From a virus: a stretch of DNA of 16,650 nt. The translations under genes were made by a program, and so were the position numbers. The notes below the pieces were generated by a model, which saw only the letters and a program-made list of their open reading frames with translations, was not told the DNA's origin and made no database searches. Each line of letters opens with the position of its first letter. Within the stretch, counting starts at the first letter, position 1. The stretch lies in UHGV virus genome UHGV-0207574, one strand, 5' to 3'. This document shows positions 1 to 13,754 of this stretch, piece by piece.

Positions 1-73
1 GTTCACTTTAGCTCATCTCATAGCTGAAATTTTGCCGCTATTTTTTTACACTTAAGCGAAAAATGAGGTGATT

Positions 74-1009
74 ATGGAACCCCTTCGTGAAATAAGAAAT
101 CGGCTGCTTAACGGCTGGCAATTATCAAAAATGCATACTTTTGAAGTGGCTGCCAGGCATCAGTCCTTCGCCCTGGCGGCAGAGGAATTGTCGCTGAGCC
201 CCAGTGCGGTAAGTCACCGTATCAATCAGCTGGAAGAAGAATTGGGCATTCAGTTGTTTGTTCGTTCCCATCGCAAAGTGGAATTAACGCACGAGGGGAA
301 ACGTGTTTATTGGGCGCTAAAATCGTCGCTGGATACCCTGAACCAGGAAATTCTTGATATCAAAAATCAGGAGTTATCGGGAACGTTAACTCTGTATTCC
401 CGGCCCTCTATCGCCCAATGCTGGTTGGTGCCCGCATTAGGTGACTTTACACGCCGGTATCCGTCTATTTCGCTCACCGTGCTCACTGGTAATGACAACG
501 TCAATCTGCAACGTGCCGGAATCGATTTGGCGATCTACTTTGATGATGCGCCGTCAGCGCAACTCACTCATCACTTTCTGATGGATGAAGAAATCCTGCC
601 AGTATGTAGCCCGGAATACGCTCAAAGACATGCTTTAACCAACACGGTAATTAACCTGTGTCACTGTACGTTGCTCCATGACAGACAGGCATGGAGCAAC
701 GACTCCGGTACGGATGAATGGCATAGTTGGGCGCAACATTATGCGGTTAATTTGCCGACATCTTCTGGAATTGGCTTTGATCGTTCTGATTTAGCTGTTA
801 TTGCCGCGATGAATCATATTGGGGTGGCGATGGGAAGAAAACGCCTGGTACAAAAAAGGCTTGCCAGTGGTGAGCTCGTCGCGCCGTTTGGCGATATGAC
901 GGTGAAATGCCATCAGCATTATTACATCACCACATTACCGGGCAGGCAGTGGCCAAAAATTGAAGCGTTTATTATCTGGCTAAGAGAACAGGTAAAAACC
1001 ACTTCATAA
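74..1009 (+). CDS. dsdC: LysR-family transcriptional activator of D-serine utilisation (DsdC)
   Basis: The ORF track frame 68..1009 begins with GTG; the ATG at 74 follows a GAGG RBS and gives MEPLREIRNRLLNGWQLSKMHTFEVAARHQSFALAAEELSLSPSAVSHRINQLEEELG, an N-terminal LysR HTH followed by a substrate-binding domain. The sequence matches my recollection of E. coli DsdC. Stop TAA at 1007-1009. Confidence 0.88.
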   Translation: MEPLREIRNRLLNGWQLSKMHTFEVAARHQSFALAAEELSLSPSAVSHRINQLEEELGIQLFVRSHRKVELTHEGKRVYWALKSSLDTLNQEILDIKNQELSGTLTLYSRPSIAQCWLVPALGDFTRRYPSISLTVLTGNDNVNLQRAGIDLAIYFDDAPSAQLTHHFLMDEEILPVCSPEYAQRHALTNTVINLCHCTLLHDRQAWSNDSGTDEWHSWAQHYAVNLPTSSGIGFDRSDLAVIAAMNHIGVAMGRKRLVQKRLASGELVAPFGDMTVKCHQHYYITTLPGRQWPKIEAFIIWLREQVKTTS

Positions 1010-1103
1010 TGAATAAAACCACGAGTTCCTGGTGTGCCTTATTCGGCCTGCTAGTTCGAATTTAATTTACGGTTTTTATGTGGTTTTAGGGATAAACACA
1101 AGG

Positions 1104-1119
1104 ATGGTGTCCCCTGCAG
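1104..1119. repeat. att-right core (direct repeat of the argW 3' end)
   Basis: ATGGTGTCCCCTGCAG is identical to 13679-13694; flanking sequence diverges immediately on both sides. Confidence 0.8.
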
Positions 1120-1176
1120 ACATCTACTTGAGGCGGCAGGGGATTGATTGGAATGGTGTTTTTTAGATGTGAAAAA

Positions 1177-1198
1177 TATTTTACCCGCTATTTTACCC
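1177..1198 (+). repeat. Two direct copies of TATTTTACCC (1177-1186, 1189-1198) next to att-right and the torI 3' end; candidate recombination-protein binding sites
   Basis: Seen directly. The same octamer (as GGGTAAAA / TTTTACCC) recurs three times beside the integrase start at the other prophage end (13519-13563). Confidence 0.4.
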
Positions 1199-1393
1199 AT
1201 TGGCGCGGCTTAAGAGCTTATTTTTGAATTCACAATGGTCACGATATAACCATCTTGCTCGCCCGTGGATAACTTTGGCTTTTGGTAGGTCGCCGGACTT
1301 AATCCGGTCGTAGATGAAGGTTTTACCAAAGCCAGTATCGGCCATGATGAATTTCAAATCAACCAGTGAATCAGGCTGTAGTTCGTGTTGCAT
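1193..1393 (-). CDS. torI: Excisionase / recombination directionality factor TorI (also described as an inhibitor of the Tor response regulator)
   Basis: 66-aa ORF MQHELQPDSLVDLKFIMADTGFGKTFIYDRIKSGDLPKAKVIHGRARWLYRDHCEFKNKLLSRANG, a winged-helix Xis/AlpA-like small protein. Matches my recollection of KplE1 TorI. Sits next to att-right. Confidence 0.85.
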   Translation of the reverse strand: MQHELQPDSLVDLKFIMADTGFGKTFIYDRIKSGDLPKAKVIHGRARWLYRDHCEFKNKLLSRANG

Positions 1394-1412
1394 GAGTGCT
1401 ATCTCCGAATAT

Positions 1413-1428
1413 GGAATCGAACCTGCAA
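1413..1428. other. Internal 16-bp fragment identical to the argW variable-loop/T-arm region
   Basis: GGAATCGAACCTGCAA at 1413-1428 is identical to 13694-13709 inside the argW gene. It lies ~20 bp upstream of the torI start codon and ~300 bp inside the prophage. Confidence 0.5.
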
Positions 1429-1517
1429 ATCAGGCAATAAAAAGCCGCATTGATGCAGCAATGGTAGGTCTGGATATCTTGAGAAATGAACAGGCCTCAT
1501 CGAGTGTGAGACTGTGG

Positions 1518-1862
1518 TTAGTCCTTGCGTAGCTCGCTGATTCTTCTGTAAGTCTCTGGTGCTTTGTTTCCGTGTATCTTCATTTCAGACTTCAACAGAG
1601 CAACGAGGGAATCCCATTCGTTGAGGATGCCTTTGAATGCCGGAACGCGCTTTGCAACCTTGTCGAATGAATCTCTGATTTCTGGAATCTGCTCAACAAG
1701 CGCAACGCATCGCCGGAAATCTGCTGCGTCATGGGGAGCGCCGAAGTGATGACCATAGATATTCTTTTTCAGTCCACATGCGATTGAGGCAAGAGTTGCG
1801 CTACTTATGCCAACATCGCCAGTCGATTGCCATTTCAAAACCTTCATAGCCAAATCTGACAT
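1518..1862 (-). CDS. Hypothetical phage protein (114 aa)
   Basis: ORF track frame 1518..1889. The ATG at 1862 has a GGAGA RBS (GGAGACAAGAA ATG) and gives MSDLAMKVLKWQ...; the longer start at 1889 would lie inside a terminator hairpin. I do not recognise a family. Confidence 0.55.
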   Translation of the reverse strand: MSDLAMKVLKWQSTGDVGISSATLASIACGLKKNIYGHHFGAPHDAADFRRCVALVEQIPEIRDSFDKVAKRVPAFKGILNEWDSLVALLKSEMKIHGNKAPETYRRISELRKD

Positions 1863-1872
1863 TTCTTGTCTC

Positions 1873-1898
1873 CAATAAAAAACCGCCATCAGGCGGCT
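1873..1898 (-). terminator. Putative intrinsic terminator on the minus strand (GCCGCC-TGAT-GGCGG followed by TTTTTTATT)
   Basis: Minus-strand sequence CAAGCCGCCTGATGGCGGTTTTTTATTGGAG: a short GC stem, 4-nt loop and T-tract, immediately upstream of the RBS of the 1518..1862 ORF. An A-tract on the other side means it could act in both directions. Confidence 0.4.
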
Positions 1899-1962
1899 TG
1901 GTGTTCTTTCAGTTCTTCAATTCGAATATTGGTTACATTGTTTTCATATATGAATAAATAAA

Positions 1963-2142
1963 TTAGCTTTTTTCGTTGCCTTCGCGTTCTTTATTAATTT
2001 TGACAAACTCGTTTTTACCACGCTCTCCAAATGCGTCTTTAGAGTCGTTGTATCCGCAATCGCAGCACACATAATCACCAGACCATCCACGCATTGTTTT
2101 TTCTTTTGCAATATTTCCAGAACCGCATTTTGGACAAGACAT
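1963..2142 (-). CDS. Small zinc-ribbon protein (CPKC...CCDCG), 59 aa
   Basis: The ATG at 2142 is preceded by GGAGG (GGAGGTAGTGAT ATG) and gives MSCPKCGSGNIAKEKTMRGWSGDYVCCDCGYNDSKDAFGERGKNEF..., with two Cys pairs spaced as in a zinc ribbon. The ORF track start at 2175 is probably an overextension. Confidence 0.55.
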   Translation of the reverse strand: MSCPKCGSGNIAKEKTMRGWSGDYVCCDCGYNDSKDAFGERGKNEFVKINKEREGNEKS

Positions 2143-2238
2143 ATCACTACCTCCAAAGCATGAGTGAGATGACAACGTAACATTGATTGGAGATTAACAA
2201 TAGATTGCTGATGTAAAAGATATGTATAAGCTTCGCTT

Positions 2239-3066
2239 TCAAAGTGGAGGCTCTGGTAGCGGCATCCAGTGAGTTACGTCATCCAAGATATTTCCTGATA
2301 AATACGTGAAAGCTCTATATTTTTTGTAATCAATTGGATTTACAACCCAGTTCCAATATGCTGCCACGATTTCACCTTGACTAAATGCCAGTAACATTTT
2401 GGTGTCTTCCGGCATTCTCTCACTACAGCTTATCCAACCATCTGGAATTACCGGAGAGTTGCCAGATGGCTCGTTCAACTTGTAAGTTTGGCTTACAGGT
2501 TCGGCACCATGAAGCATGGCGTCGCTCCGCTCTATGCCATCCAGCGCGATTCGCAGTGCCTGAATTGTGGTAGAGCTATCGTTTGGGGCTATTCCATATC
2601 GCTCGAATACAGCTAAATGGTTGCGCATAATCTCAGGCGTAAGCTCTTTGTAAGCATAAGCAAGAGGCTCTGATGCATTATCCGGCACAACCGACGCAGG
2701 CGCGGCAGCATAAACAGGAATAACGTCCGCTTCACGAACCTGCATTGCATAGGCAACGATGTTTGCTGCGCTTGGCGTGTTCTTTGCGATCTCAGCGATA
2801 TAAGCAAAACCGCCAACAGACGCCGTTAACGATTTACGCTCCAGTTCATCGAAAAGCGTCAGGCCATCTACTGGCTTTTGCTCCCGGTGCATTCTGGTTA
2901 TTTCTTCGAAAAGGATTTTGTGTGGCCGGCTGTAAAATGAGTCAGGCTTCAGCATCGCCAGAACTTTCTGGACGCGCTCACTGCTGTCATCATCCAGAAG
3001 CAATCCACCAATCACCGCCTGCTCTGCCTCGATGCTATGGGGCGGCGCATAAAAATTATCGGTCAT
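2239..3066 (-). CDS. Chimeric replication-module protein: DnaB-helicase N-terminal domain fused to an Ead/Ea22-like region and a DUF551-like C-terminus; no helicase ATPase core
   Basis: The ATG at 3066 gives MTDNFYAPPHSIEAEQAVIGGLLLDDD ... LTASVGGFAYIAEIAKNTPSAANIVAYAMQVREA, which closely resembles the primase-interacting N-terminal domain of DnaB (PHSIEAEQ and SVGGFAY..KNTPSAANI motifs). The C-terminus (WISCSERMPEDT ... VTHWMPLPEPPL) resembles DUF551. Start overlaps the stop of the upstream O-like gene by 11 nt. Confidence 0.7.
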   Translation of the reverse strand: MTDNFYAPPHSIEAEQAVIGGLLLDDDSSERVQKVLAMLKPDSFYSRPHKILFEEITRMHREQKPVDGLTLFDELERKSLTASVGGFAYIAEIAKNTPSAANIVAYAMQVREADVIPVYAAAPASVVPDNASEPLAYAYKELTPEIMRNHLAVFERYGIAPNDSSTTIQALRIALDGIERSDAMLHGAEPVSQTYKLNEPSGNSPVIPDGWISCSERMPEDTKMLLAFSQGEIVAAYWNWVVNPIDYKKYRAFTYLSGNILDDVTHWMPLPEPPL

Positions 3067-3946
3067 CGTGTTCACCCTCACGAACTTTCAGGTAGGTATT
3101 GTCGTTAAGCAGGAAATCAAATCCCTTTTTGTGCCAGACGGTTCCGCGTTGATGGTTTGGGCGTTCTTCGAACATCCATCGGCAATTTTCGCCTACGTAG
3201 ATCAAATAATTTCTCCAGTCCTGCATCGTGAACCCATGCCCGTCAAGCTGGCGGGTTATCACTCCGGCTTTGCGCCAGAACGTTCGGATCTGGTTTTTAC
3301 GCTTGTCATTCAGTGCGCGGATTCTTGGCGCTTCAGGAAGGATTTCGTGGTAAGCATCGACAACATCCTGACAGCTGACGGAAGGTTTTTTCTTGTCAGA
3401 CTTTTTGTCTGCTGTGGCACTCTCTAATACGTCAGTATTAGAGATATTATTTATATTATTGTTTATGGACAACCGTTGGACAACCGTTGGACAATCTCCG
3501 CTGAGAGCCGCGCCATTACTGGTGTTTGCGTTGGACAACCGTTGGACAACCGTTGGACAATTTTTTGCCTGAAAATCGTCATATTTAACGATTGTAAACA
3601 GGCTAAATTTCTTCCCCATCGAGCAAATATTAAGCATCCCTTTCGACTCAAAAGTCCGTAATAAGCTCCGAACTTTGTTGTCGGGGATGAATGTTTCTCT
3701 GACCAGCGACGGGCGTCCAGTTATCATCTGACCGCGATCAACAGTTATCGGACCGATATCCGTATTGACGACAGTAGATTCGTGATTAGCCTTGAGGATT
3801 AAGTGAAGCCAAAGATGTACTGCCTGAGAGTCCTTATAGAGCCTGCTGTCCATAAACTGGCGGTGTATAGAGACATACCCCATACTGGATGCCTCCTGAT
3901 GTTGTACAGGGTTATGCCTGTAATCAGCTAACTTAACGACGCCCAT
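3056..3946 (-). CDS. Replication initiator, lambda O-like, with the origin iterons inside the gene
   Basis: 296-aa ORF with an N-terminal region resembling the phage O origin-binding domain (HLWLHLILKANHES...). A central linker is encoded by tandem 11-bp repeats, giving the duplicated peptide CPTVVQRLSN. Translationally coupled to the downstream gene. Confidence 0.7.
   Translation of the reverse strand: MGVVKLADYRHNPVQHQEASSMGYVSIHRQFMDSRLYKDSQAVHLWLHLILKANHESTVVNTDIGPITVDRGQMITGRPSLVRETFIPDNKVRSLLRTFESKGMLNICSMGKKFSLFTIVKYDDFQAKNCPTVVQRLSNANTSNGAALSGDCPTVVQRLSINNNINNISNTDVLESATADKKSDKKKPSVSCQDVVDAYHEILPEAPRIRALNDKRKNQIRTFWRKAGVITRQLDGHGFTMQDWRNYLIYVGENCRWMFEERPNHQRGTVWHKKGFDFLLNDNTYLKVREGEHDDR
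3465..3560. repeat. Putative replication origin: six iterons (unit TTGGACAACCG) in two clusters of three (3465-3496, 3531-3560)
   Basis: Direct tandem repeats seen in the sequence, lying inside the O-like gene as lambda ori lies inside O. Next to them in the gene's direction is an AT-rich tract (3440-3464) and a perfect 9-bp inverted repeat CTCTAATAC-GTCA-GTATTAGAG (3422-3443). Confidence 0.7.
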
Positions 3947-4094
3947 GTTTCACTCCTGCTTTGGCTAGTCTGTAAACACCAACAAGGCGCTCTGCGAACG
4001 CCCTGTTATTTGCTGCGGCTACCACTAATCCCTCAGGTGAATCAGGGTGTCGAATCTCTTCTTTTTCCTGGTATTTCTTACGACGTTTTGTCAT
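3933..4094 (-). CDS. Small basic hypothetical protein (53 aa), not in the ORF track (below the length cutoff)
   Basis: The ATG at 4094 is preceded by AGGAG (ACAGGAGTAATT ATG) and gives MTKRRKKYQEKEEIRHPDSPEGLVVAAANNRAFAERLVGVYRLAKAGVKHGRR. Its 3' end overlaps the RBS and start of the O-like gene. Lies between the cII-like and O-like genes. Confidence 0.4.
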   Translation of the reverse strand: MTKRRKKYQEKEEIRHPDSPEGLVVAAANNRAFAERLVGVYRLAKAGVKHGRR

Positions 4095-4128
4095 AATTAC
4101 TCCTGTGGATTGATCCAGTCTTTCTACA

Positions 4129-4407
4129 TCAGGCCTCGAAGAATTCGCCGTTCTTCGGGGCTTTTTCTTTTGTCAGCATTCTGGCTACTTTCTTAGCCAG
4201 TTCCGCCAACTCCTCGTCTTCAACACCCCATTCAAGAACAGCAAGAAGCATTCCCATTTTGGGGATGAAGCTGTCTTTCCATCGCGAAATTTGCGATTCA
4301 TTAATTCCTAACGCGTCAGCAACCTTTCGCTGACCACGTACAGCAATTCGATTCAGGATGTTGCTTGTAATTGCATTCGCTTTCTTGCGAGTACTTGTAA
4401 GTTCCAT
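4129..4407 (-). CDS. CII-like transcriptional regulator (92 aa)
   Basis: The ATG at 4407 with an AGGAAA RBS gives MELTSTRKKANAITSNILNRIAVRGQRKVADALGINESQISRWKDSFIPKMGMLLAVLEWGVEDEELAELAKKVARMLT..., closely resembling lambda CII (GVDKSQISRWKRDWIPKFSMLLAVLEWGV). The ORF track frame extends upstream to 4494. Confidence 0.75.
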   Translation of the reverse strand: MELTSTRKKANAITSNILNRIAVRGQRKVADALGINESQISRWKDSFIPKMGMLLAVLEWGVEDEELAELAKKVARMLTKEKAPKNGEFFEA

Positions 4408-4463
4408 ATGTAAGTATTTCCTTAACAAATAAGAAGTTATGCGCATCAACTTATGCGCGTTGT

Positions 4464-4509
4464 ATTCCCGCATTTCGGCGGGAATGAGGACCATGACTGT
4501 TAAAGAGCG
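4464..4509 (-). promoter_or_regulatory. nutR-like antitermination site: boxA CGCTCTTTAACA (4498-4509) and a boxB-like hairpin (4464-4485)
   Basis: Minus strand reads CGCTCTTTAACA, a 12-nt spacer, then ATTCCCGC-CGAAAT-GCGGGAAT (8-bp stem, GAAA-containing loop). It sits between the cro fragment and the cII-like gene, as nutR does in lambda. Confidence 0.5.
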
Positions 4510-4515
4510 GTGTTA

Positions 4516-4614
4516 CTATTTGTTTTTCTTGTTGCTTGGGAAAGGACGAACTTCCTCTCCAATCACACTGCCATCAGGCTTTACCGTAAACGACGCTATA
4601 CAGCCAGATGGCAA
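4516..4614 (-). pseudogene. cro gene, 3' fragment only
   Basis: Minus-strand frame ending at stop 4516-4518 translates to ...CIASFTVKPDGSVIGEEVRPFPSNKKNK, matching the lambda Cro C-terminus (INADGSVYAEEVKPFPSNKKTTA). There is no N-terminal part and no in-frame start. Confidence 0.65.
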
Positions 4615-4730
4615 TCAACTGCGCAGTGCATGAGAAAAAGCCCGCTCTGATGTTCAGCCTTGAAATGCCAGGTGATCAGATACTGGAAAAACTGGTAGGG
4701 CAGAAGTCTGGTGTTAACCCGAATATTTTT
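4611..4730 (+). pseudogene. Fragment of a DnaB-family helicase core (region just after Walker A), on the plus strand
   Basis: The first ~40 codons of the ORF track frame 4608..5093 read AINCAVHEKKPALMFSLEMPGDQILEKLVGQKSGVNPNIF, resembling E. coli DnaB (AMNLCENAAMLQDKPVLIFSLEMPSEQIMMRSL). The rest of that frame looks like non-coding alt-frame sequence. Confidence 0.4.
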
Positions 4731-4759
4731 TACCTTCCGGCGACAAATGACGCTGATGA

Positions 4760-5281
4760 CGGCTACTCGGGGAAAACATCCTTTCCTGCGATACGGAGAA
4801 GAGTATCCGGGAGCGATTTTCTGTTTACCAGGTGGCGGGGCAGCGTGCCGGAAACGACGATGATTTCGGTGAGGCCACCACCACCGCGCTGCGGGCCCGC
4901 ACAGAGGACGCATTTATTGCCCGTTACCGTCCGATGTATATCAGGCAGACAGGGCAGGCTACGGGGGCAGGCTGTATTGCCCGTGCGGACTTTGAAGCCC
5001 GGCAACGGGCGGCGCGGACGGATGAAACCACCTATGTGGTGCAGGGCTGGCGACAGGGTAACGGTACGCTGTGGCAGCCCAACCAGCGGGTGATTGTCTT
5101 CGATCCGGTCTGTGGTTTCGACAATACCGAACTGCTTGTCTCGGAAGTCACGTTTACTCAGGACCAGAATGGCACCCTGACGGAAATCCGTGTCGGCCCA
5201 CCTGATGCTTATCTGCCTGAACCCGAAGCCCCCGGCGCGCGGAAAAAGAAAAAAGCCAGAGTACAGGAGGACCCGTTCTGA
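4760..5281 (+). pseudogene. 5'-truncated baseplate-hub/tail gene (Mu gp44 / P2 gpD-like), C-terminal part
   Basis: The frame is open from the stop at 4757-4759 with only a GTG at 4832 as a possible start. Its stop overlaps the start of the downstream gpV-like gene (TGATG), and position and composition match the upstream member of a Mu-type baseplate cluster. Family assignment is by position, not recognised sequence. Confidence 0.45.
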
Positions 5282-5829
5282 TGAGGACGATTGAAGCCAT
5301 GCAGCGACAACTCCTCGGCCTGATTGGGCGGGCCGTGGTGAAAAGCATCAGTGCCGCCACGAAATGTCAGACCGTGGATGTGTCCCTGATTGCCGGTGAA
5401 CCCAAAGCCGGGATTGAACATCTTGAACCCTACGGTTTTACCGCAAGGGCAAACAGCGGTGCGGAAGCGGTGGTGTTGTTTCCGGATGGCGACCGTTCTC
5501 ATGCGGTGGTTGTTACGGTGTCGGACCGGCGTTACCGCCTGAAAGGGCTGCAGACGGGTGAGGTGGCTGTCTATGACGATCAGGGGCAGTCCGTGACGCT
5601 GACCCGGGAGGGGATCGTGGTGGACGGTGCAGGTAAAACGATCACGTTTCGCAATGCGCCCAGAGCACGTTTTGAAATGGACCTGGAAGTGACCGGACAG
5701 GTGAAAGACCTGTGCGACTCCGGCGGCACCACCATGTCAGCGATGCGGCTTGCCTATAACGGGCATCGTCACAGAGAGAACGGTCAGGGCAGTAACACCG
5801 ACAAACCTGATAAAGCGATGGAGGCATGA
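5281..5829 (+). CDS. Baseplate assembly/spike protein, gpV-like (Mu gp45-like)
   Basis: 182-aa ORF, translationally coupled on both sides, GC-rich, with a C-terminal DSGGTT motif that I recall from P2 gpV-type proteins. Confidence 0.65.
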   Translation: MRTIEAMQRQLLGLIGRAVVKSISAATKCQTVDVSLIAGEPKAGIEHLEPYGFTARANSGAEAVVLFPDGDRSHAVVVTVSDRRYRLKGLQTGEVAVYDDQGQSVTLTREGIVVDGAGKTITFRNAPRARFEMDLEVTGQVKDLCDSGGTTMSAMRLAYNGHRHRENGQGSNTDKPDKAMEA

Positions 5830-6254
5830 TGGTACTGTGGCTGACGGTGAACGGTAAACGCACCTGCGCCAGCGCACCGCTGGATCCGCTGACCCGCGCC
5901 GTGGTGATTTCCCTGTTTACCTGGCGGCGGGCGGAGCCTGATGACAACGCCGACGTCCCGATGGGATGGTGGGGGGATACCTGGCCTGCGGTACAGAATG
6001 ACCGTTACGGCTCCCGGCTGTGGCTGCTTCAGCGCAGCAAACTGACCAATCAGCTGGTGCAGACGGTAAGGGGGTATATCCGCGAATGTCTGCAATGGAT
6101 GATTGATGACGGCGTGGTGTCCCGTATTGATCTGGATATCCGCCGCACCGGGATTAATGAACTGGGTAACAGTATCACTCTCTGGCGTCGTGACGGACCG
6201 GTAATGATTTCTTTTGATGATCTGTGGAGTGCGATAACGCATGGCGGACAGTGA
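5826..6254 (+). CDS. Baseplate protein, phage GP46 family (gpW-like)
   Basis: 142-aa ORF with start overlapping the upstream stop (ATGA). Size and position between the V-like and J-like genes are typical of a Mu-type baseplate cluster. Confidence 0.6.
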   Translation: MMVLWLTVNGKRTCASAPLDPLTRAVVISLFTWRRAEPDDNADVPMGWWGDTWPAVQNDRYGSRLWLLQRSKLTNQLVQTVRGYIRECLQWMIDDGVVSRIDLDIRRTGINELGNSITLWRRDGPVMISFDDLWSAITHGGQ

Positions 6255-7299
6255 ATTTCAGCGCCCGACGCTGGCAGAAAATATCAGTATGCTCCGTAAC
6301 GATTTATTCGCCAGGCTGGACGTCAGCGACACGCTCCGGCGCATGGATGAAGACGTGCGGGCAAAGGTGTATGCGGCGGCGCTGCATACGGTTTACGGGT
6401 ACATCGATTATCTGGCAATGAACATGCTGCCTGACCTGTGCGATGAGTCCTGGCTGGCGCGACATGCTGCGATGAAACGGTGTCCGCGCAAGGGGGCCAC
6501 GGCTGCCAGCGGGTATATGCGCTGGGAAGGTGTCAGCGATGGCCTGAAGGTGACCGCCGGGAGTGTTATTCAGCGCGATGACCTGGTTCAGTACACGGCA
6601 ACTGCCGATGCAACCAGCTCCGGTGGTGTCCTGCGCGTGCCGATCGCCTGCTCAAGTTCAGGCGCGGTCGGTAACGCTGACGACGGTACGTCATTAATCC
6701 TGGTCACGCCGGTGAATGGTCTGCCGTCTTCCGGTGTGGCTGACACCCTGACAGGCGGATTTGATACTGAAGATCTGGAAACGTGGCGCGCCCGCATCAT
6801 TGAGCGGTATTACTGGACGCCGCAGGGCGGGGCTGACGTGGACTATGTCGTCTGGGCTAAAGAAGTGCCCGGCATTACCCGCGCATGGACATACCGACAC
6901 TGGATGGGAACGGGGACTGTCGGTGTGATGATTGCCAGCAGTGACCTGATTAACCCCATTCCGGAAGAATCAACGGAAACGGCAGCAAGACAACATATCG
7001 GGCCACTGGCCCCGGTGGCAGGCTCTGATTTGTATGTATTCAGGCCGGTGGCGCACAAAGTGGATTTTCATATCCGCGTGACGCCGGACACACCGGAAAT
7101 ACGGGCTGCCATTACCGCAGAGTTGCGTTCATTCCTGCTGCGTGATGGTTATCCGCAGGGAGAGCTGAAGGTATCGCGTATCAGTGAAGCGATTTCCGGT
7201 GCGAACGGGGAATACAGCCATCAGTTGCTTGCTCCGGCGGACAATATCTCCATTGCAAAAAATGAACTGGCGGTTCTGGGGACGATTTCATGGACGTGA
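6241..7299 (+). CDS. Baseplate J-like protein (Mu gp47-like)
   Basis: 352-aa ORF in the conserved V-W-J-I order, overlapping its neighbours. Confidence 0.65.
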
Positions 7300-7874
7300 C
7301 AAACGATGATTACATCCGTCTGTTGTCGGCACTGCTGCCGCCCGGTCCGGCGTGGTCAGCCAGCGATCCGGCGATTGCCGGTGCGGCACCGTCATTAACT
7401 CGTGTTCATCAGCGTGCGGATGCCCTGATGCGGGAGCTGGATCCGCGCACCACCACCGAACTGATAAATCGCTGGGAGCGTCTGTGCGGCCTGCCGGATG
7501 AATGTATTCCCGCAGGGACACAGACCCTTCGCCAGCGTCAGCAACGGCTGGATGCGAAGGTTAACCTGGCGGGTGGCATCAACGAGGATTTTTATCTTGC
7601 ACAGCTTGCTGCCCTGGGCAGACCAGATGCCACCATCACGCGATACGACAAAAGCACGTTCACCTGCTCATCGGCCTGTACTGACGCTGTGAATGCGCCG
7701 GAATGGCGGTATTACTGGCAGGTCAACATGCCAGCCGCCGCCAACACCACCTGGATGACATGTGGCGATCCCTGTGATTCCGCACTGCGTATCTGGGGTG
7801 ACACCGTTGTCGAGTGTGTGCTTAACAAACTCTGCCCGTCGCATACCTACGTAATTTTTAAATATCCGGAGTAA
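7290..7874 (+). CDS. Tail protein, Mu gp48 / YmfQ-like (P2 gpI position)
   Basis: 194-aa ORF directly downstream of the J-like gene and upstream of the tail-fibre gene. Confidence 0.6.
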
Positions 7875-7877
7875 TCC

Positions 7878-8519
7878 ATGCATCGTATAGACACGAAAAC
7901 CGCGCAGAAGGATAAGTTCGGCGCGGGTAAGAACGGTTTTACCCGTGGTAACCCCCAGACCGGCACGCCTGCCACCGATCTGGATGATGACTACTTTGAC
8001 ATGTTGCAGGAGGAGCTTTGCAGCGTTGTGGAGGCCTCCGGTGCCAGCCTGGAGAAGGGGCGGCATGACCAGCTGCTTACCGCGCTTCGTGCGCTGCTGT
8101 TAAGCCGCAAGAATCCGTTTGGCGATATCAAATTGGACGGCACGGTGCAAAAGGCTCTCGAAAACCTTGGTTTGGGAGAAGCGGCTAAAAGAAATGTAGG
8201 GACAGGGGCGAATCAGATACCTGATATGGGTAGCTTCACGCTTTCTGTTTCAGGTACTGGATATCAAAAATTGCCATCCGGTTTAATTATTCAATGGGGG
8301 CCAATTGATGTTCCGCTGACGTCTCAGGACACAGTAACCTATTTTCCGATTGCATTTCCGAATAGATGTCTGCGGGTATTTGCGACTCAGGATTACACTC
8401 CCGGCAGTGCAAATGTTGGCTATATAGCTTGTGCCGGTTATAACCAGGACCCGGTGAAATTTATTTCCAGAGCAGGCGTACCCGGTCTCGGTGCTTCATT
8501 TTTCGCATTAGGGTGTTAA
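7878..8519 (+). CDS. Tail fibre protein (short; constant N-terminal part plus variable C-terminal part)
   Basis: GGAG RBS. The N-terminus [74 protein letters not shown] is the conserved tail-fibre N-terminal region of Mu/P2-type fibres. GC content drops sharply after ~8180. Confidence 0.7.
8155..8180. promoter_or_regulatory. Candidate relic serine-invertase crossover site (gix/hix-like) inside the tail-fibre gene
   Basis: CTCTCGAAAACC-TT-GGTTTGGGAGAA is an imperfect 26-bp dyad with the AAACC-NN-GGTTT core typical of Gin/Hin/Pin sites as I recall them. It lies at the constant/variable junction of the fibre and coincides with the GC drop. Confidence 0.35.
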
Positions 8520-8545
8520 TTTCTTTTAACTTTATGGAGTGAAAA

Positions 8546-8986
8546 ATGAATCACATATATTCCGCGACTACAAACTCTTTCTATCCCTTGGAGATGAAAG
8601 AGGATTACACGCAAGCTGGCTCATGGCCAGATGATGCTGTTGAAGTTGATGAGCAAGTGTATATTGAGTTTTCCGGATTACCGCCGAAAGGAAAAATCCG
8701 TATCGCTGGAGAAAATGGTTTTCCTGCATGGTCTGAAATTCCACCACCAACACATGAGGAACAGATTGCTGCAGCCGAACTGAAAAAGCAGCAATTGATT
8801 AATCAGGCCAACGATTATATGAACAGTAAACAATGGGCTGGTAAAGCGGCTATTGGTCGTCTGAAAGGTGAGGAACTGGCGCAATATAATTTGTGGCTGG
8901 ATTATCTGGACGCACTGGAGCTGGTCGATACTTCCAGTGCGCCAGATATTGAATGGCCTACTCCTCCGGCAGTTCAGGCCAGATGA
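8546..8986 (+). CDS. Tail fibre assembly protein (Tfa/U-like)
   Basis: 146-aa ORF with a GGAG RBS, ending ...SSAPDIEWPTPPAVQAR, a typical Tfa C-terminus. Immediately downstream of the tail-fibre gene. Confidence 0.7.
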   Translation: MNHIYSATTNSFYPLEMKEDYTQAGSWPDDAVEVDEQVYIEFSGLPPKGKIRIAGENGFPAWSEIPPPTHEEQIAAAELKKQQLINQANDYMNSKQWAGKAAIGRLKGEELAQYNLWLDYLDALELVDTSSAPDIEWPTPPAVQAR

Positions 8987-9260
8987 CATCCGGCGCGGTG
9001 CTGGTATCTGTTGCCGTCACCGCGTCAATGTAATCCAGCACAGTGTTAAGTCGGGAGGTCTCTGCCTGCATCAGCTTCCGCCCAGCCCGTAATTTCAGTT
9101 GAATCAGACTAATGGAAGCCATTGCAGTATCAATCAGTGACTGACGCTGTGCTTCTGCCGCGTCTACTGCGGCGTGATGCTGTGCCTCAGTATCGGTCAC
9201 CCATTTCTCACCATCCCATTTATCGTATGGCGTTAATGGGGCGATAGTCGCGGGACGCAT
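8958..9260 (-). pseudogene. Second tail fibre assembly gene (C-terminal half only), convergent with and overlapping the first
   Basis: Minus-strand frame MRPATIAPLTPYDKWDGEKWVTD...TSTAPDVIWPELPEE has a Tfa-like C-terminus. It is blocked upstream by a stop at 9318-9320, so at most ~120 codons remain. Overlaps the 3' end of the plus-strand tfa by ~29 bp. Confidence 0.5.
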
Positions 9261-9284
9261 ACAAACATAACCCCTGGATGTTAT

Positions 9285-9566
9285 GTGTCTATCGAGAATC
9301 AAAGTGGAAGTCCTTATGTTAAGTATAAGACAGGAATCACTTATAACGATAATCAGTTAGTATATGTATCTATCACTGTTGATGATAATATCAGCACTTG
9401 GTTCTGGAGGGGGTTTGTTGTGGGCAATGATGCATTTAAGTTATCGTCTGCAGATAGAGGAGATATTACAATAAACAACGAATCAGGGCATTTGATAGTC
9501 AATACCGCAATTCTATCAGGAGATATAGTCACTCTAAGAGGAGGAGAAATTAGGTTGGTATTATAG
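9285..9566 (+). other. Orphan ORF (93 codons, GTG start, no internal Met), possibly a 3' gene fragment
   Basis: VSIENQSGSPYVKYKTGITYNDNQ...DIVTLRGGEIRLVL is rich in N/T/S/V/I, like the beta-rich tip of a fibre. There is no ATG and only a weak RBS. It lies in low-GC DNA between the tfa remnant and gtrC. Confidence 0.25.
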
Positions 9567-9570
9567 CTTG

Positions 9571-9592
9571 TGCGCGCCATGATTGGCGCGCA
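9571..9592. repeat. Perfect GC-rich palindrome TGCGCGCCA-TGAT-TGGCGCGCA between the convergent stop codons of the orphan ORF and gtrC
   Basis: 9-bp perfect inverted repeat with a 4-nt loop and no adjacent T-tract on either strand. Could be a terminator-like hairpin or a protein-binding palindrome. Confidence 0.45.
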
Positions 9593-9600
9593 ATTTAAAC

Positions 9601-10932
9601 TTAGTGCTTTACATCGCTATTGTCTTGATTTCTTTGAATTATTTTATAAATTAAAAAAACGACTGTTATGTATAAGCAAAGGTCGAACGAAAAATACATT
9701 CCAAATAAATGCTTGCTTAAATCTCTATATCCTTCCCCGAAAAATGACACATAAAATTGAGATATTCCAAAAAGAGATACTACAAATAAAGATGCCTTTA
9801 TTTTATTATTTCTAATAAAAATAGAAGCAATAAAAAATAATAACAATGATATAAATCTAATGTTTTTAAATATATTGTCTTTTATGTTAGTAATAGTCGT
9901 TAGTATGTTTGATTCTCCATATATTACGTGTAGTTTTTTATATACATGGAAATAATTTTCTTTATACTGAGACATCACACCATCATCAAATGGAAGTTTG
10001 AAGATGGTGCTTGGTTTGCTAACCAATAAAAAGAGTGCATTCGAAAACGTTTCATCTTTATGAGATTCGAAACATTCCGTTCCAACTTCTGTTGGGGTTG
10101 CGCCAAATGATATGTCGAATTTATTACCCCAAGCATCTAACCCAACACACTTATCATCAACATACGATGGCATTTTATACCCGTTGTTTTTCATATAAAG
10201 ATAACTACCGAAGTATGTTGCATGGTACTTATTTAATTCAACAACACCTTTTGAATAAGATATTGCAAATATTGACGCAAGCAAGCACACCACGCATATT
10301 ACAGATTTAATAATTAGTTTGTGTCTATCAAAAAAAATATAATATGAATACACTATTAGTGGGGTTAATATAAATTGATTTTTAGCAGTAGATATTATTA
10401 GCAACGAAAAAAATAGCAAAAGCATAGATTTATTGTTTTTGCATGTTAATGAATACACCAAAAATGGAAGGAAAATTATAACTATTTGCTCTTGATAGAA
10501 TGATGCAAACATTGACAGTGTTGATGAAGAACACATAAGAAAAGCTAAAATAAAGAATGTAAATAAAGTTACATACCTTTCTGTTTTTATATATGAAGTA
10601 AATATCGCATATAATGAATAAATATATATTACTTTTAGAAATAACGATAACACCCTAGCATCAAGATATTCAGTAAAAATGCTAATAAACAGGACGTATG
10701 TATACAAAATATAACTATATGAACTTATATACTCATAGCTATCAATTGAATCAATATGACCTTTCAATTTATACAATAAAGGTAAGTCATATGTAAATGC
10801 TGGTATGTCTTCAATTAATGGCTTAATGGCTCTTCCGAAATCAGATGTATTTAACATCATTATGTTTTTAGATAAGGCGCAAATAATCAAAACAAAAGAT
10901 ATATACAATGATACTTTTATTGCTTTATTCAT
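9601..10932 (-). CDS. gtrS: Serotype-specific O-antigen glucosyltransferase, GtrC-type polytopic membrane protein (K-12 equivalent yfdI/gtrS)
   Basis: 443-aa, very AT-rich, highly hydrophobic multi-pass ORF. Third gene of a gtrA-gtrB-gtrC operon and translationally coupled to gtrB. The family is defined by position and topology rather than sequence conservation. Confidence 0.7.
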
Positions 10933-11849
10933 TTTTTGACTCTCTTGATGATGTATTTCGGGCGTTTTTTGGTTTCAATGTATGTGCGTCCAATATATTC
11001 ACCTAATACTCCTATTCCAATCATCTGAATTCCACCTAAAAACAGTATTGAAACAAGTAGTGAAGGATATCCCCTAACAGCATTTCCAAATATGATAGTA
11101 TCTAAAATCATCCACGCCCCATAAATAAATGCTACACTGGCTACCACTAACCCTATGTATGTCCAGATGCGAAGAGGGAATGTGGAAAAGCTTGTAATAC
11201 CCTCAAGTGCTAAATTCCAAAGTTTCCATCCATTAAATTTTGTATCTCCAGCAATTCTTTCCGCTCGCACGTATTCAACAATATCTGTCTTTCCTCCTAC
11301 CCAGCTCAGAATACCTTTCATGAAAAGGTTTCGTTCTGGCATAAGTTTAATATTTTCGACAACATCACGGCTCATCAGCCTGAAATCACCAACATTCTCT
11401 TCAATTTTAGGATTGCTTATTTTATTGTGGAGCTTATAGAACCACTCAGCCGTTTTTCGCTTCAGGCGTCCATCAGTTGAGCGGTCAGATCTTTTAGCAA
11501 GAACCATATCAGCACCTGCTTGCCATTTTTCAATAAGATGAGGAATAACCTCAATCGGGTCTTGCAGGTCAACATCAATTGGGATTATCGCATCCCCGGT
11601 TGCATGGTCTAACCCTGCAAACAATGCTGGTTCTTTACCAAAGTTGCGTGTAAATGACAGCGGAACAACTAGAGGATCTGAAACAGCCAGAGCATTAATG
11701 ATTGACTCCGTAGCGTCTTTGCTGCCGTCATTTATGAAAACGATTTCCACTTCATATGACTTCAATTCTTCGAATTCACGTACCGTTTTATAAAAAATTG
11801 GTATCGCTTCTTCTTCATTGAAGACAGGAACTACAAGAGATATCTTCAT
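10929..11849 (-). CDS. gtrB: Bactoprenol glucosyltransferase GtrB (GT2 family)
   Basis: 306-aa [23 protein letters not shown]...INDGSKDAT...DVDLQDP: a GT2 catalytic domain followed by C-terminal transmembrane helices, as in GtrB/YfdH. Confidence 0.85.
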
Positions 11850-12208
11850 TTCGCATCCCTAAAGACAATGAACTTTGAATAGACGAAACCGCACACCAGG
11901 CTGATGGCGGAGAAGGTGACAAGAGTTATCATCGGGGGAAGTGCGCATCTATCAGCAGCCCATCCAACAGTAGCACTCAGTGTCCCCATGAACCCAACAT
12001 ATAGCATGTAGCGCATCGTTGTAGTCGATGCCTTGAATGTGAATTTTGCATTCGCGAAGAAGCTAAAGCTCACAGCCACAACGAAACCTGCGAAGTTTGC
12101 AAGAGCTTGGTTTGTATGCGCGACATAGATACAAACACCAAAAACCACCCAGTGTATAAGGGTGTTCAGCACACCAATAGAGGTGTACTTTGCAAATAGC
12201 TTTAACAT
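11846..12208 (-). CDS. gtrA: GtrA family flippase for undecaprenyl-phosphate glucose
   Basis: 120-aa small four-helix membrane protein, first gene of the operon, overlapping gtrB by 4 nt. Confidence 0.8.
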
Positions 12209-12360
12209 TTCTTCTATCAGCTAATAATCAAAGGAATGAAGTCTATCATCCAAGTCTTAATCGATCGATACTTGCTGTGGTTGATGAGACAAAACTTATA
12301 CACACAAAGCTTTGCACTGGATTGCAAGACTTTGTGCTATTCGATAGTTGTTAAGGTCGC

Positions 12361-13518
12361 TCACTCCACCTTCTCATCAAGCCAGTCCGCCCACCATTGC
12401 ATCATTTCTCTGCGTTTATCGAGATACTGAGCATGGTTGTAAATCCCACGCACAGATCCGCCGTTTGCATGTGCCAGTTGCACTTCAATAGCGTCAGCAG
12501 GCCATTCGTGCTCGTTCATAATCGTGCTGAATTCATGCCTGAATCCGTGACCGCTTTCCAGACCCTCATAGCCGATTTGTTTGATCACAAGCAGTACCGC
12601 GTTCTCGCAGATTGGCTTCTTCTTATCGTTGCGCCCGGCAAAAACAAACTCTGAGACTGGTTTGGTGATGGAGCTTAGCGTAGTGAGAAGTTCAACTACC
12701 TGGTCTGACATAGGAACCACATGAATTTTGCGTCCTTTCATCACACTGGCGTCGATGGTGATAATCCTATTTTCAAAATCGACGTTCTTCCATAGCATGG
12801 AACGAAGCTCTTTCGTTCTTAGGGCTGTGTAGCGTAAAACTTTGGTCGCAATGAGCGATACGATACTTCCTGAAAATGTTGCCAGTGCTTTGTTGAATGC
12901 CGGGATCTGGTCTGCAGGAAGAAACGGGAAGTTCTTCTTGCGGTATCCCTTCATGGCGTCAGCAAGGTCAGGTGCCGGGTTATATTTAGCCCTTCCGGTG
13001 ACAATAGCGTAACGGAAAACCTCGCCGCATCTTCTGCGTGCTTTGTTGGCTCGTTCCATTGCACCGCGATCTTCAAACCTGCGGATTACTTCCAGCAGTT
13101 GCATCGGCTCAATATCCTGAATTTCAAGGCCGCCAATGATAGGTAAAATGTCGTCGTCAAACATTTTGGCAAGTTCAGTTGCATACCCTACTGACCATAC
13201 TTGCTTCTTGTGCTCGTACCATTCCTTGTAAATCGCACTAAAGGAATTGTTGTTAGACGAAGCCTTTTTCGCCTTTACAGGATCGATGCCAACCGAGATG
13301 TCTTTCCTCGCAGTCCATGCTTTATCCCTTGCCTCCTGCAAAGTCATAAGCGGATATTTTCCGACGGTCAGGATTTTCTCCTTACCGTCAATCTTGTAGC
13401 GAAGCTGCCATACCTTTTTCCCTGACACAGGGACATAAAGGTACAGGCCATTACCATCGAGAAGGCGGTATGGTTTTTCTTTCGGCTTTGCTGCTTCAAT
13501 CTGCTTAACGGTGAGCAT
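12361..13518 (-). CDS. intS: Tyrosine-family site-specific integrase (IntS-like)
   Basis: From the ATG at 13518 (MLTVKQIEAAKPKEKPYRLLDGNGLYLYV...) the protein has a P4-type integrase N-terminus and a C-terminal catalytic domain (...HGFRHEFSTIMNEH...GIYNHAQYL). The ORF track starts at an upstream GTG at 13554. Adjacent to the tRNA. Confidence 0.85.
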   Translation of the reverse strand: MLTVKQIEAAKPKEKPYRLLDGNGLYLYVPVSGKKVWQLRYKIDGKEKILTVGKYPLMTLQEARDKAWTARKDISVGIDPVKAKKASSNNNSFSAIYKEWYEHKKQVWSVGYATELAKMFDDDILPIIGGLEIQDIEPMQLLEVIRRFEDRGAMERANKARRRCGEVFRYAIVTGRAKYNPAPDLADAMKGYRKKNFPFLPADQIPAFNKALATFSGSIVSLIATKVLRYTALRTKELRSMLWKNVDFENRIITIDASVMKGRKIHVVPMSDQVVELLTTLSSITKPVSEFVFAGRNDKKKPICENAVLLVIKQIGYEGLESGHGFRHEFSTIMNEHEWPADAIEVQLAHANGGSVRGIYNHAQYLDKRREMMQWWADWLDEKVE

Positions 13519-13563
13519 GGGTAAAAATCCGGTGGGTAAAATTATTTTATCCACTTTTTACCC
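13519..13563. repeat. Octamer repeats GGGTAAAA (13519-13526, 13534-13541) and inverted TTTTTACCC (13555-13563) at the integrase 5' end; candidate arm-type or RDF binding sites
   Basis: Seen directly. The same motif occurs twice next to att-right (1177-1198). Confidence 0.4.
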
Positions 13564-13678
13564 GTCATGGAGTGCGGCTGTCAACGATCTGAAGCGAACC
13601 ATGACGAACTGTAAATCTACGGAATGCTTGATATTCAGGGGATTTTGCGGACTGGTACGGATGGGAGCGAACTGATAA

Positions 13679-13694
13679 ATGGTGTCCCCTGCAG
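13679..13694. repeat. att-left core overlapping the 3' end of argW
   Basis: ATGGTGTCCCCTGCAG, identical to 1104-1119. Confidence 0.8.
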
Positions 13695-13754
13695 GAATCG
13701 AACCTGCAATTAGCCCTTAGGAGGGGCTCGTTATATCCATTTAACTAAGAGGAC
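13680..13754 (-). tRNA. argW: tRNA-Arg (anticodon CCU)
   Basis: Minus-strand 75-nt sequence GTCCTCTTAGTTAAATGGATATAACGAGCCCCTCCTAAGGGCTAATTGCAGGTTCGATTCCTGCAGGGGACACCA. It has the acceptor stem, an anticodon loop CU-CCU-AA, a GGTTCGATTCC T-arm and an encoded CCA end. Confidence 0.9.

Follow-up and report, generated by a model that had tools for sequence, protein, structure and literature searches.

The KplE1-type integration module, whose 16-nt att core has been published, is common to HK620, Sf6 and others (PMC2951348). In E. coli K-12, the KplE1/CPS-53 prophage is integrated at argW with the identical core at both ends. It has intS beside the argW-side att, reading inward, and torI at the opposite end, and it keeps a gtrA/gtrB/gtr-type O-antigen modification cluster together with tail-fibre leftovers. 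All of these features are found in the DNA analysed here, UHGV virus genome UHGV-0207574, a stretch of 16,650 nt that we call the window. Microhomology junctions over 7-32 kb have been described in E. coli, among them one complex amplicon in which a segment is inverted (PMC1428787), and the model of microhomology-mediated break-induced replication (MMBIR) was given by Hastings et al. 2009 (PMC2621351).

The argW remnant and its gene fragments

The 16-nt core CTGCAGGGGACACCAT occurs in two exact copies in the window (0 expected by chance), both on the minus strand. One lies on the torI side (1104-1119) and matches the published core exactly (PMC2951348). The other (13679-13694) is within the 3' end of argW, tRNA-Arg(CCT) (13680-13754), adjoining intS (12361-13554, minus strand) with its integrase domains, which reads inward. 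At the far end, torI (1193-1393, minus strand, native orientation), recognized by identity to annotated torI loci, codes for the excisionase or recombination directionality factor; this anchor is also present in the PK12 and TW10590 prophages. About 12.6 kb separate the two cores, and both flanks have the gene order of the E. coli chromosome (dsdC ... argW-yfdC-mlaA), window positions 1-1515 being 98.4% identical to the dsdC-torI region of E. coli strain 1409. With both att cores, intS and torI retained, the remnant may still excise, like KplE1. Unlike KplE1, it retains a flipped block with cII, O and a DnaB-N::DUF551 fusion, has half a baseplate-hub gene with a complete Mu-type baseplate wedge set, and contains three joints that are absent from every complete E. 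coli genome searched. The region around the inverted repeat at 4569-4613, to which attention had been drawn, is an ordinary non-functional decay scar inside a defective KplE1/CPS-53-family argW prophage.

In an intact prophage the leftward genes are torI and the early-left ones, and the rightward genes are cro, cII, O, dnaB, nin and the late genes, including the hub gene; TW10590 and strain 1409 agree on these orientations. Here the DUF551 early-left gene is followed by a flipped block (dnaB nt 336 back to cro nt 122), then by natively oriented dnaB nt 668-845 and lastly by the hub gene from nt 563 onward. Missing are the repressor gene and the remaining early-left operon, cro nt 1-121 and dnaB nt 337-667, together with the whole stretch from dnaB nt 846 through hub nt 562. 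The flipped block (2731-4589, 1,859 bp) matches the minus strand of intact phage vB_EcoP-683R2 (98.7%) and of the PK12 prophage (99.4%). On the minus strand it carries dnaB nt 1-336 (2731-3066), an O-type replication gene with iterons (3056-3946), a small ORF (3933-4094), cII (PF05269, 4129-4407) and cro nt 122-195 (4516-4589), and the nutR region also lies inside it. Both records, vB_EcoP-683R2 and PK12, match the block on the minus strand, and their matches to the torI end and to the 178-nt dnaB piece are on the plus strand; in the intact prophage of E. coli PK12, specifically, the att/torI end and the 178-nt piece are on the plus strand and 2731-4132 on the minus strand. The preliminary description saw an oppositely oriented helicase fragment. 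An inversion is indeed involved; however, the helicase scrap is collinear with torI and the baseplate genes, and it is the block 2731-4589 (cro 3' end, nutR, cII, O and dnaB 5' part) that has been flipped.

Each gene at the scar is a fragment. The parent cro encodes a lambda-type Cro matched end to end by PF09048, with a full fold of about 60 aa; the window retains 24 codons. The cro/cII stretch is 100% identical to many E. coli prophages and 99.5% to HK620. The parent helicase has both DnaB_N and DnaB_C domains; what is left is aa 1-112, flipped and joined to DUF551, and, separately, aa 223-282, with no intact gene. The second piece (nt 668-845, 178 nt, at 4588-4765 on the plus strand) lies in DnaB_C directly after Walker A and matches the helicase genes of vB_EcoP-683R2 and PK12 at 100% identity; the peptide that had been read as DnaB-like is a genuine DnaB-family fragment. 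Since the PK12 helicase gene carries both pieces at 100% identity and at the expected 331-nt spacing, they can come from one source gene; other sampled alleles match the two pieces at 97.9% and 100% (L001) or 100% and 97.2% (D53-1). The 3' part of the early-left DUF551-domain gene (2239-2730, minus strand, native orientation) is in frame with dnaB codons 1-112, forming a 275-aa ORF (2239-3066) in which Pfam finds the DnaB N-terminal domain and DUF551 together; homology to the TW10590 DUF551 gene stops at 2732. Of the Mu gp44/GpP-type baseplate hub gene, the 3' 518 nt remain (nt 563-1080, at 4764-5281, plus strand). By Pfam, the 149-aa ORF there has the 4th/C-terminal domains only, and an intact homologue of 359 aa has all four (GpP 1st, Gp44 2nd, 3rd and GpP 4th). 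Intact gp45, gp46, gp47 and gp48 follow, and then tail-fibre and tail-fibre-assembly genes. Window positions 4764-16650 are 99.7% identical to strain 1409, which has the hub gene in full.

Three joints with 2-nt overlaps

Aligning the locus with intact phages had been suggested as the way to define its breakpoints. BLAST against intact phages and prophages located three joints, J0 being fixed by a three-way alignment of the window, L004 and the reverse complement of L001. J0 (2731/2732), an addition to the two junctions reported before, connects DUF551 gene nt 278 to dnaB nt 336, and TT fits either parent. J1 (4588/4589) connects cro nt 122 head to head with dnaB nt 668, with AA shared. J2 connects dnaB nt 845 to hub nt 563 on the same strand, with TA shared; this second junction between the helicase fragment and the truncated hub exists as had been said, at 4764/4765 and not at ~4730-4760. 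The joint-spanning sequences are ..AACGTCCGCTTCACGAACCTGC.. for J0, ..CTTTACCGTAAACGACGCTAT.. for J1 and ..GATGACGGCTACTCGGGGAAA.. for J2. Microhomology is exactly 2 nt at all three; at least 2 nt is expected with P = 0.16 at one random joint and P = 0.004 at all three. The parental switches are abrupt, no mobile-element end is present, and no IS or recombinase site was found at the joints. The scar is a product of illegitimate, microhomology-level recombination within a KplE1/CPS-53-family prophage.

All three joints occur in one 45-kb MEGAHIT metagenome contig at ~105x coverage. J1 and J2 are also found in a SPAdes contig from a different dataset, the one contig obtained from the JGI metagenomes, and J0 was found through its fusion ORF in 7 contigs from several samples; the source of ERZ19693154 is one carrier sample. 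The joints are real DNA and not an assembly artefact, because two assemblers and several samples agree and 2-nt overlaps are too short to create a de Bruijn-graph chimera. None of the joints occurs in 5,426 complete E. coli genomes or in intact phages, which rules out a native gene boundary and bears out the earlier reading of a rearrangement scar; J1 was absent from GTDB representatives as well. The joint-bearing sequences (L005-L007 and L018) are all metagenome contigs, suggesting that the window is one as well, and no complete genome has the joints, as an assembly chimera or a native module boundary would have it. Yet the flanks on both sides are syntenic E. coli chromosome, and 24 codons of cro, 59 of dnaB and half a hub gene cannot be a functional arrangement, so either possibility is scarcely credible.

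Several candidates for a site or signal at the joints were rejected. The only good core for a DNA-invertase crossover (Pin/Gin-type), AAACCTTGGTTT, is at 8162-8173 in a tail-fibre gene. No promoter-like site was found in 4100-5000, and the only terminator-like matches lie in or just 3' of cII (4131-4185), on its antisense strand. It is likely that nothing functional was made at a joint, where there are gene fragments only and no promoter- or terminator-like site. An anchor homology guiding the J1 switch, between dnaB GCCAGATGGC and the native right arm of cro GCCAGAATGGC, was also discarded: local-alignment scores of the parental flanks are not above those of random site pairs (P = 0.11 for J1, 0.31 for J2 and 0.58 for J0).

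The inverted repeat, the cro hairpin and the hub breakpoint

The sequence quoted for 4569-4613 in the preliminary description is correct, and the imperfect inverted repeat reported there sits at the cro/helicase breakpoint: cro/cII homology stops at 4589, and helicase homology begins at 4588, where the phage records match on the other strand. The repeat is real as two 15-nt arms (4569-4583 and 4599-4613), 13/15 complementary (87%), around a 15-nt spacer; the longer 19/20-nt arms first proposed add mismatches only (14/19). It is the single one that a repeat search finds in 4400-4900. The left arm is native cro, coding for ..VKPDGS.. on the minus strand, and the right arm is native dnaB, coding for ..IQPDGN... 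An inverted repeat spans J1 because AGCC(T/A)GATGGCA is present in both cro and dnaB, encoding Pro-Asp-Gly in each, and flipping one of them gives complementarity. The similar peptides noticed on both strands (LPSG/MPSG, FTV, PDG) are there, as a trivial consequence of the repeat. The inverted repeat is a by-product of the rearrangement and not a duplication.

As single-stranded DNA, J1 folds with -10.1 kcal/mol (plus strand) and -13.8 kcal/mol (minus strand), z = -2.9 and -4.1 against shuffles. When 4,000 random inversion joints were simulated in an intact phage early region, 5.8% folded equally well, and 2% did so with as many joint-spanning pairs. Because a comparable hairpin is found at 2-6% of random inversion joints, the J1 repeat is only marginally above chance.

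A separate observation concerns cro itself. The cro break of J1 coincides with the tip (loop) of a quasi-palindrome native to intact cro, a hairpin of -12.6 kcal/mol (z = -3.15). Only 0.2-0.9% of phage early-region positions do as well, in a post hoc test that concerns one of six breakpoints and gives a corrected P of about 0.01-0.05. SbcCD cleaves hairpin loops, and quasi-palindromes undergo template switching. It is tempting to speculate that a break or block at this native hairpin tip forced the switch in cro, which would partially rescue the hairpin idea.

The hub breakpoint of J2 was also found in other, independent prophage remnants. Between them, hub nt ~563 (GG/TACT) and a site 36 nt upstream, at nt ~528 (GG/TATTGG), serve as the endpoint in six deletion junctions that arose independently; the partner differs in each of the six, and the remnants concerned occupy three different chromosomal sites. 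There are no hairpins at this hot spot. A pseudo-cos, CGGGGAAAACAT, compared with the P2/186 cohesive end taken from records, was dismissed at an unremarkable 12/19 matches (P = 0.16). We know of no convincing match at the hub site to gyrase, topoisomerase I, Chi, EcoKI, Vsr or type II restriction motifs. Contexts sampled via gp45, and the hub site scanned in GTDB, returned intact hub genes only. From the recurrent hub endpoints and the cro hairpin tip one could argue that the scar records site-specific DNA breakage and not random decay, an idea that we regard as doubtful. Repeated breakage of SfV/Mu-type tail modules at fixed nucleotides by a nuclease, a topoisomerase or a replication barrier, if it does occur, would lead to convergent truncation of prophages and leave the same baseplate and tail-fibre cassette behind. 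A defined break site in the hub gene would then explain why the same truncated cassette is found across E. coli and Shigella lineages.

Routes to the scar and known rearrangements

We favour one template-switch event over an inversion followed by deletions. Judging by the product, it is somewhat probable that all three joints arose in a single complex replicative event, either long-distance template switching or MMBIR. A nascent strand would leave the DUF551 gene, copy the opposite strand backwards over 1.86 kb (dnaB nt 336 to cro nt 122), jump from there to dnaB nt 668 to copy 178 nt, and finally jump to hub nt 563. A single event is supported by the clustering of the breakpoints, given that 510 nt of a single gene contain three of the six (dnaB nt 336, 668 and 845) in a prophage tens of kb long, by the short templated piece of 178 nt, by the equal microhomology lengths and by the lack of intermediates in our searches. 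The 2-nt microhomologies would also suit end-joining of broken ends.

Sequential decay is possible, and we hold it to be less likely. An inversion between cro nt 121/122 and dnaB nt 667/668 would be followed by the J0 deletion, with a separate J2 deletion at any time. The bookkeeping is exact: after the inversion the missing material is contiguous, and the J0 deletion would run from the DUF551 gene across the reciprocal joint (cro up to nt 121, TT and the reverse complement of dnaB up to nt 667, ...CGTAACATCATGGTTTTCCCCATCTTAGGGCG...) into the flipped dnaB. Prophage remnants at the argW site elsewhere show many differing independent deletions, and J2 could be an event of its own, its hub endpoint recurring as a deletion endpoint in other remnants. 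Sequential decay, however, needs three rare events with endpoints that fall by chance within 510 nt of dnaB, one of them a homology-independent inversion, which is rare in E. coli. The less-decayed intermediates that had been anticipated at this locus were not found, nor was a source genome, in the 5,426 complete E. coli genomes, the phage collection, GTDB representatives or JGI metagenomes. One event can be told directly from several only with an intermediate or a parent genome in hand. The scars constrain the order of events that had been read from them only weakly: in a stepwise course the inversion came before the J0 deletion, and J2 has no fixed place. Either route could be combined with an origin in two prophages, which we consider unlikely. 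The early block and/or the dnaB scrap would then come from a second lambdoid prophage (e.g. a tandem P22/HK620-like one at argW) and the baseplate from a different resident remnant, J2 and/or J1 being inter-prophage joints. Among intact sequences, torI, O and dnaB are matched best by the P22-like prophage of PK12, whose late genes are those of a podovirus and which lacks a Mu-type baseplate; a mosaic phage or tandem prophages may thus have supplied the early and late parts. The integration module shared with HK620 and Sf6 (PMC2951348) and the different alleles that best match the two dnaB pieces (L001 and D53-1) fit two prophages too. Against two sources, the single PK12 allele matches both pieces perfectly, the pieces do not overlap, there is one pair of att cores only, and lambdoid mosaicism suffices to combine a P22-like early region with a Mu-like tail module.

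The inverted repeat had been proposed as an inverted duplication, or fold-back hairpin, that mediated a deletion or inversion. In favour of this proposal, the repeat does exist and its fold is more stable than that of shuffled sequence. Nevertheless, nothing in 1100-5300 is present twice by self-BLAST except the O-gene iterons, the dnaB pieces (nt 1-336 and 668-845) have no overlap, and both arms are unaltered, 100% identical to intact cro and dnaB. Before the event the arms were direct repeats 2.3 kb apart, an arrangement that favours deletion over inversion. The crossover fell in the spacer; because the arms are 5-10 nt away from it, the repeat cannot have mediated J1. Inversion between inverted repeats does not describe the joint, with arms that are direct in the parent, a crossover in the spacer and flank homology at chance. 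Both this geometry and the simulated null exclude the repeat as the driver of the event, and we consider the fold-back proposal very improbable.

In itself the scar is of little significance, being one more decay route of a cryptic prophage at the well-known argW site. Its use as a clean natural case, in E. coli, of a deletion that carries an inverted insertion and has 2-nt joints is modest; this signature is usually considered in connection with template switching, in laboratory amplification systems as well as human copy-number variants.

The scar can be compared with several known kinds of rearrangement. With a fold-back inverted duplication it shares a head-to-head joint and a short spacer separating complementary arms, but the two sides of J1 are different genes and no sequence is in two copies. 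Like hairpin- or palindrome-stimulated breakage, it has a breakpoint at the loop of a native quasi-palindrome; a difference is that cro has a short, imperfect stem, 6-7 bp in its inner part, and represents a single case in a post hoc test. Nor is the product a quasi-palindrome correction, as in quasi-palindrome template switching. Template switching and MMBIR (Slack et al. 2006, PMC1428787; PMC2621351) resemble it in several respects: identity at the joints is very short, the jumps span kb to tens of kb, breakpoints cluster, and now and then a segment is inverted or a short templated piece lies between joints. In E. coli lac amplification the microhomologies are 4-15 nt (PMC1428787), in contrast to 2 nt here, and the outcome at argW is a net deletion with an inverted insertion instead of an amplification.

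Parents and joints of the scar

The scar is a genuine but ordinary product of prophage decay. Its blocks were delimited by BLAST searches of phage records and complete E. coli genomes, and alignment with intact phages fixed the breakpoints and showed the blocks to be sharply bounded. Positions 4380-4589 contain the start of cII, nutR and the 3' end of cro, and match phage records on the minus strand (100% identity to many prophages, 99.5% to HK620). Positions 4588-4765 come from the interior of a lambdoid DnaB-type helicase gene (dnaB), matching vB_EcoP-683R2 (100% identity) and HK633, HK75 and Stx2 phage 86 (98.9-99.4%) on the plus strand. From 4764 onward the sequence is 99.7% identical to E. 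coli strain 1409, through the Mu gp44-type baseplate hub gene and all that lies downstream. The cro parent is a PF09048 Cro protein and the hub parent has four domains. The DnaB similarity claimed in the preliminary description holds, given the identity to the vB_EcoP-683R2 helicase and a parent with DnaB_N and DnaB_C; the 178-nt scrap corresponds to aa 223-282, directly after Walker A.

Base-by-base three-way alignments place three joints. J1 (4588/4589) couples cro nt 122 to dnaB nt 668 with a shared AA, while J2 (4764/4765) couples dnaB nt 845 to nt 563 of the 1080-nt hub gene with a shared TA. J0 (2731/2732) couples the 3' part of the early-left DUF551 gene (from nt 278) to dnaB nt 336 with a shared TT. 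J0 makes an in-frame ORF of 275 aa (2239-3066, minus strand) uniting the DnaB N-terminal domain (aa 1-112) with the C-terminal part of the DUF551 protein, and this fusion is identically encoded on seven metagenome contigs from several samples.

The joints were found in 0 of 5,426 complete E. coli genomes and in no phage record, which identifies a rearrangement scar, as had been proposed, and not a native boundary. GTDB representatives lacked them too, and the genomes, phage records, GTDB and metagenome contigs searched yielded no carrier of some but not all of the joints. A 45-kb MEGAHIT contig (~105x) matches window 1-8375 at 99.93% identity, its six mismatches being confined to the tail-fibre gene. 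In a second dataset, a SPAdes contig that agrees with the window at every position of 3916-8233 covers J1 and J2. With overlaps of two nucleotides, the joints cannot be graph chimeras.

The native layout was read from intact or less-decayed prophages with the same torI/att end (TW10590, strain 1409 and PK12). In the orientation of the window, torI and the early-left genes run leftward, and cro, cII, O, the helicase gene, the nin genes and the late genes run rightward. Against the single PK12 record, 1104-1448 (att core and torI) and 4588-4765 (dnaB piece) match on the plus strand and 2731-4132 on the minus strand (99.4% identity). Therefore, the helicase scrap, co-linear with the baseplate genes, is native in orientation, and the flipped part is the 1,859-bp block 2731-4589, not the helicase piece as first supposed. 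The block carries dnaB nt 1-336, O with its iterons, a small ORF, cII, nutR and cro nt 122-195; dnaB nt 337-667 are absent from the window. The iterons are ori-like, perfect 30-nt direct repeats inside O (3466-3495 and 3532-3561). The O and cII frames are intact; their promoter region and the cro 5' end are lost.

An inverted duplication, also proposed, finds no support: self-BLAST of 1100-5300 returned the O-gene iterons as the sole repeat and no duplicated segment, and the two pieces of dnaB cover separate parts of the gene. The PK12 helicase allele has both pieces at 100% identity and the expected spacing; this outweighs the comparison with two other alleles, which hinted at separate origins. 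Among intact prophages, that of PK12 (L155, NZ_CP074031.1 1566396-1599866) is the nearest relative of the early region, its match covering torI, O and the helicase gene. It is P22-like and its late genes are those of a podovirus; the window therefore combines early and baseplate modules that stem either from one mosaic phage or from two prophages.

The inverted repeat at J1

The repeat first described at J1 is present in the window as quoted. A repeat search of 4400-4900 found it as the single inverted repeat, with arms at 4569-4583 and 4599-4613 (13 of 15 positions complementary) and a 15-nt spacer. Folded as single-stranded DNA, the joint reaches -10.1 kcal/mol for the plus strand (z = -2.9 against shuffles) and -13.8 kcal/mol for the minus strand (z = -4.1). 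The similar peptides from both strands are real, but trivial. The cro arm AGCCTGATGGCA (..KPDGS..) and the dnaB arm AGCCAGATGGCA (..QPDGN..) are unaltered parental sequence; before the event they lay 2.3 kb apart as direct repeats, and they are complementary because one of them was flipped. Of 4,000 random inversion joints generated from the early region of an intact phage, 5.8% equal or exceed J1 in folding stability, 13% reach its number of joint-spanning pairs and 2% meet both criteria, so the repeat is marginal. It is best read as a by-product. The preliminary description was largely right in what it observed, but its mechanism is not supported: the crossover lies inside the spacer, 5-10 nt away from each arm, and the arms were formerly direct repeats, which leaves a hairpin formed by this repeat unsupported. 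There is no sign that the joint has a function.

Intact cro has a quasi-palindrome of its own (6170-6250 in the compared locus L003; window 4560-4589 plus lost sequence), GCCATCAGGC-TTTAC-CGTAAC-CATGAT-GTTACG-GCCTG..ATGGC, folding at -12.6 kcal/mol (z = -3.15). The cro break of J1 (CCGTAA, then C) falls at its loop. In the early regions of two phages, with four window sizes, only 0.2-0.9% of positions lie at the tip of an equally good hairpin; corrected for six breakpoints, this post hoc coincidence has P ~0.01-0.05 and hints at breakage or blockage at the hairpin tip.

Formation of the joints and the recurrent hub breakpoint

Microhomology is exactly 2 nt at J0, J1 and J2; the probability of at least 2 nt is 0.16 at a random joint and 0.004 for all three. 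No mobile-element end or recombinase site was found at them, and the joints are products of illegitimate recombination. Reasoning from product to path, we favour with modest confidence one complex event in which the template was switched three times. Copying would have switched from the DUF551 gene to dnaB nt 336 on the opposite strand, run on back to cro nt 122, switched to dnaB nt 668, copied 668-845 and switched from nt 845 to hub nt 563. This is favoured because three of the six parental breakpoints fall inside one 510-nt stretch of the dnaB gene, a short templated piece sits between two joints, the joints are uniform, and a homology-independent inversion already needs two joints. Microhomology junctions over 7-32 kb have been described in E. 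coli, including one complex amplicon with an inverted part (PMC1428787; PMC2621351). However, the junctions of PMC1428787 share 4-15 nt of identity, against 2 nt in the window, and anchoring homology near J0, J1 and J2 is not above chance; both count against template switching.

A sequential path is less favoured. It would comprise an inversion with breaks between cro nt 121/122 and dnaB nt 667/668, then a deletion from the DUF551 gene through the reciprocal inversion joint into flipped dnaB (J0), and an independent deletion from dnaB nt 845 to hub nt 563 (J2); in its favour, the material missing at J0 is contiguous once the inversion has been made. End-joining of several breaks would yield a product identical to that of the template-switching event.

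Truncated hubs were found by look-up of the 149-aa truncated-hub ORF and by a viral-contig scan with the sequence right of J2. In the others the hub sequence begins at the same place and the partners differ. At a GG / TACT site (hub nt ~559-566) the partner is dnaB nt 845 in the window (4764, hub nt ~563; argW), the region upstream of the early-left DUF1317 gene in thrW/proA remnants (7-nt microhomology TACTCGG), a yfdR-like gene (GGTA) or the tail-assembly-chaperone region (TACT and nearby ACTGCGC). At a GG / TATTGG site (hub nt ~528) it is YfdP-side sequence at the icd site or an HNH endonuclease gene. These are six independent junction types, with six partners, two hub positions 36 nt apart and 2-7 nt of microhomology, found at L008, L009, L010, L012, L014-L017, L102 and L112, in remnants at argW, thrW/proA and icd sites. 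None of the truncated hubs found has its junction elsewhere in the gene, and in a positionally unbiased viral-contig sample both (2/2) lie at these two sites. The probability under uniform endpoints is <=3e-6, a rough estimate that takes into account the reach of the look-up, which detects junctions only within about 130 nt upstream of the ORF start. This makes a random hub endpoint for J2 improbable. Neither a hairpin nor an invertase site was found at the hub breakpoint, and its likeness to a P2/186 cos end is not significant.

The remnant in its chromosomal setting

The window is E. coli chromosome carrying a prophage remnant of ~12.6 kb, placed between dsdC, a LysR-family regulator gene (68-1009), and argW, tRNA-Arg(CCT) (13680-13754), which yfdC and mlaA follow. 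Its borders are two exact matches to the 16-nt KplE1/CPS-53 att core CTGCAGGGGACACCAT (1104-1119 and 13679-13694), taken from PMC2951348.

The differences that separate the window from metagenome contigs identical to it elsewhere all lie in the tail-fibre and assembly genes (six mismatches at 8234-8256 in contig L005, 27 spread across 8234-9195 in L018), and this pattern suggests local recombination or strain mixture. The tail-fibre gene contains a single perfect invertase crossover-like core AAACCTTGGTTT (8162-8173), a partial inverted tail-fibre-assembly ORF lies at 8958-9302, and the window has no invertase gene. This stretch has the look of an invertible host-range segment that has decayed. 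One 5.8-kb contig assigned to a Bacillota MAG (L021, JAEWTL010000032.1), 97.3% identical to the baseplate region of this E. coli prophage, is probably mis-binned. At the position of the serotype-specific Gtr glucosyltransferase (9601-10932, minus strand) lies a 443-aa protein without Pfam match, annotated as "hypothetical" in strain 1409.

On the minus strand, torI (1193-1393), the gtrA/gtrB/gtr-specific cluster (9601-12208) and intS (12361-13554) occupy the positions described for the KplE1/CPS-53 family (PMC2951348). With both att cores, torI and full-length intS intact, the remnant may, like KplE1 in K-12, have remained able to excise.
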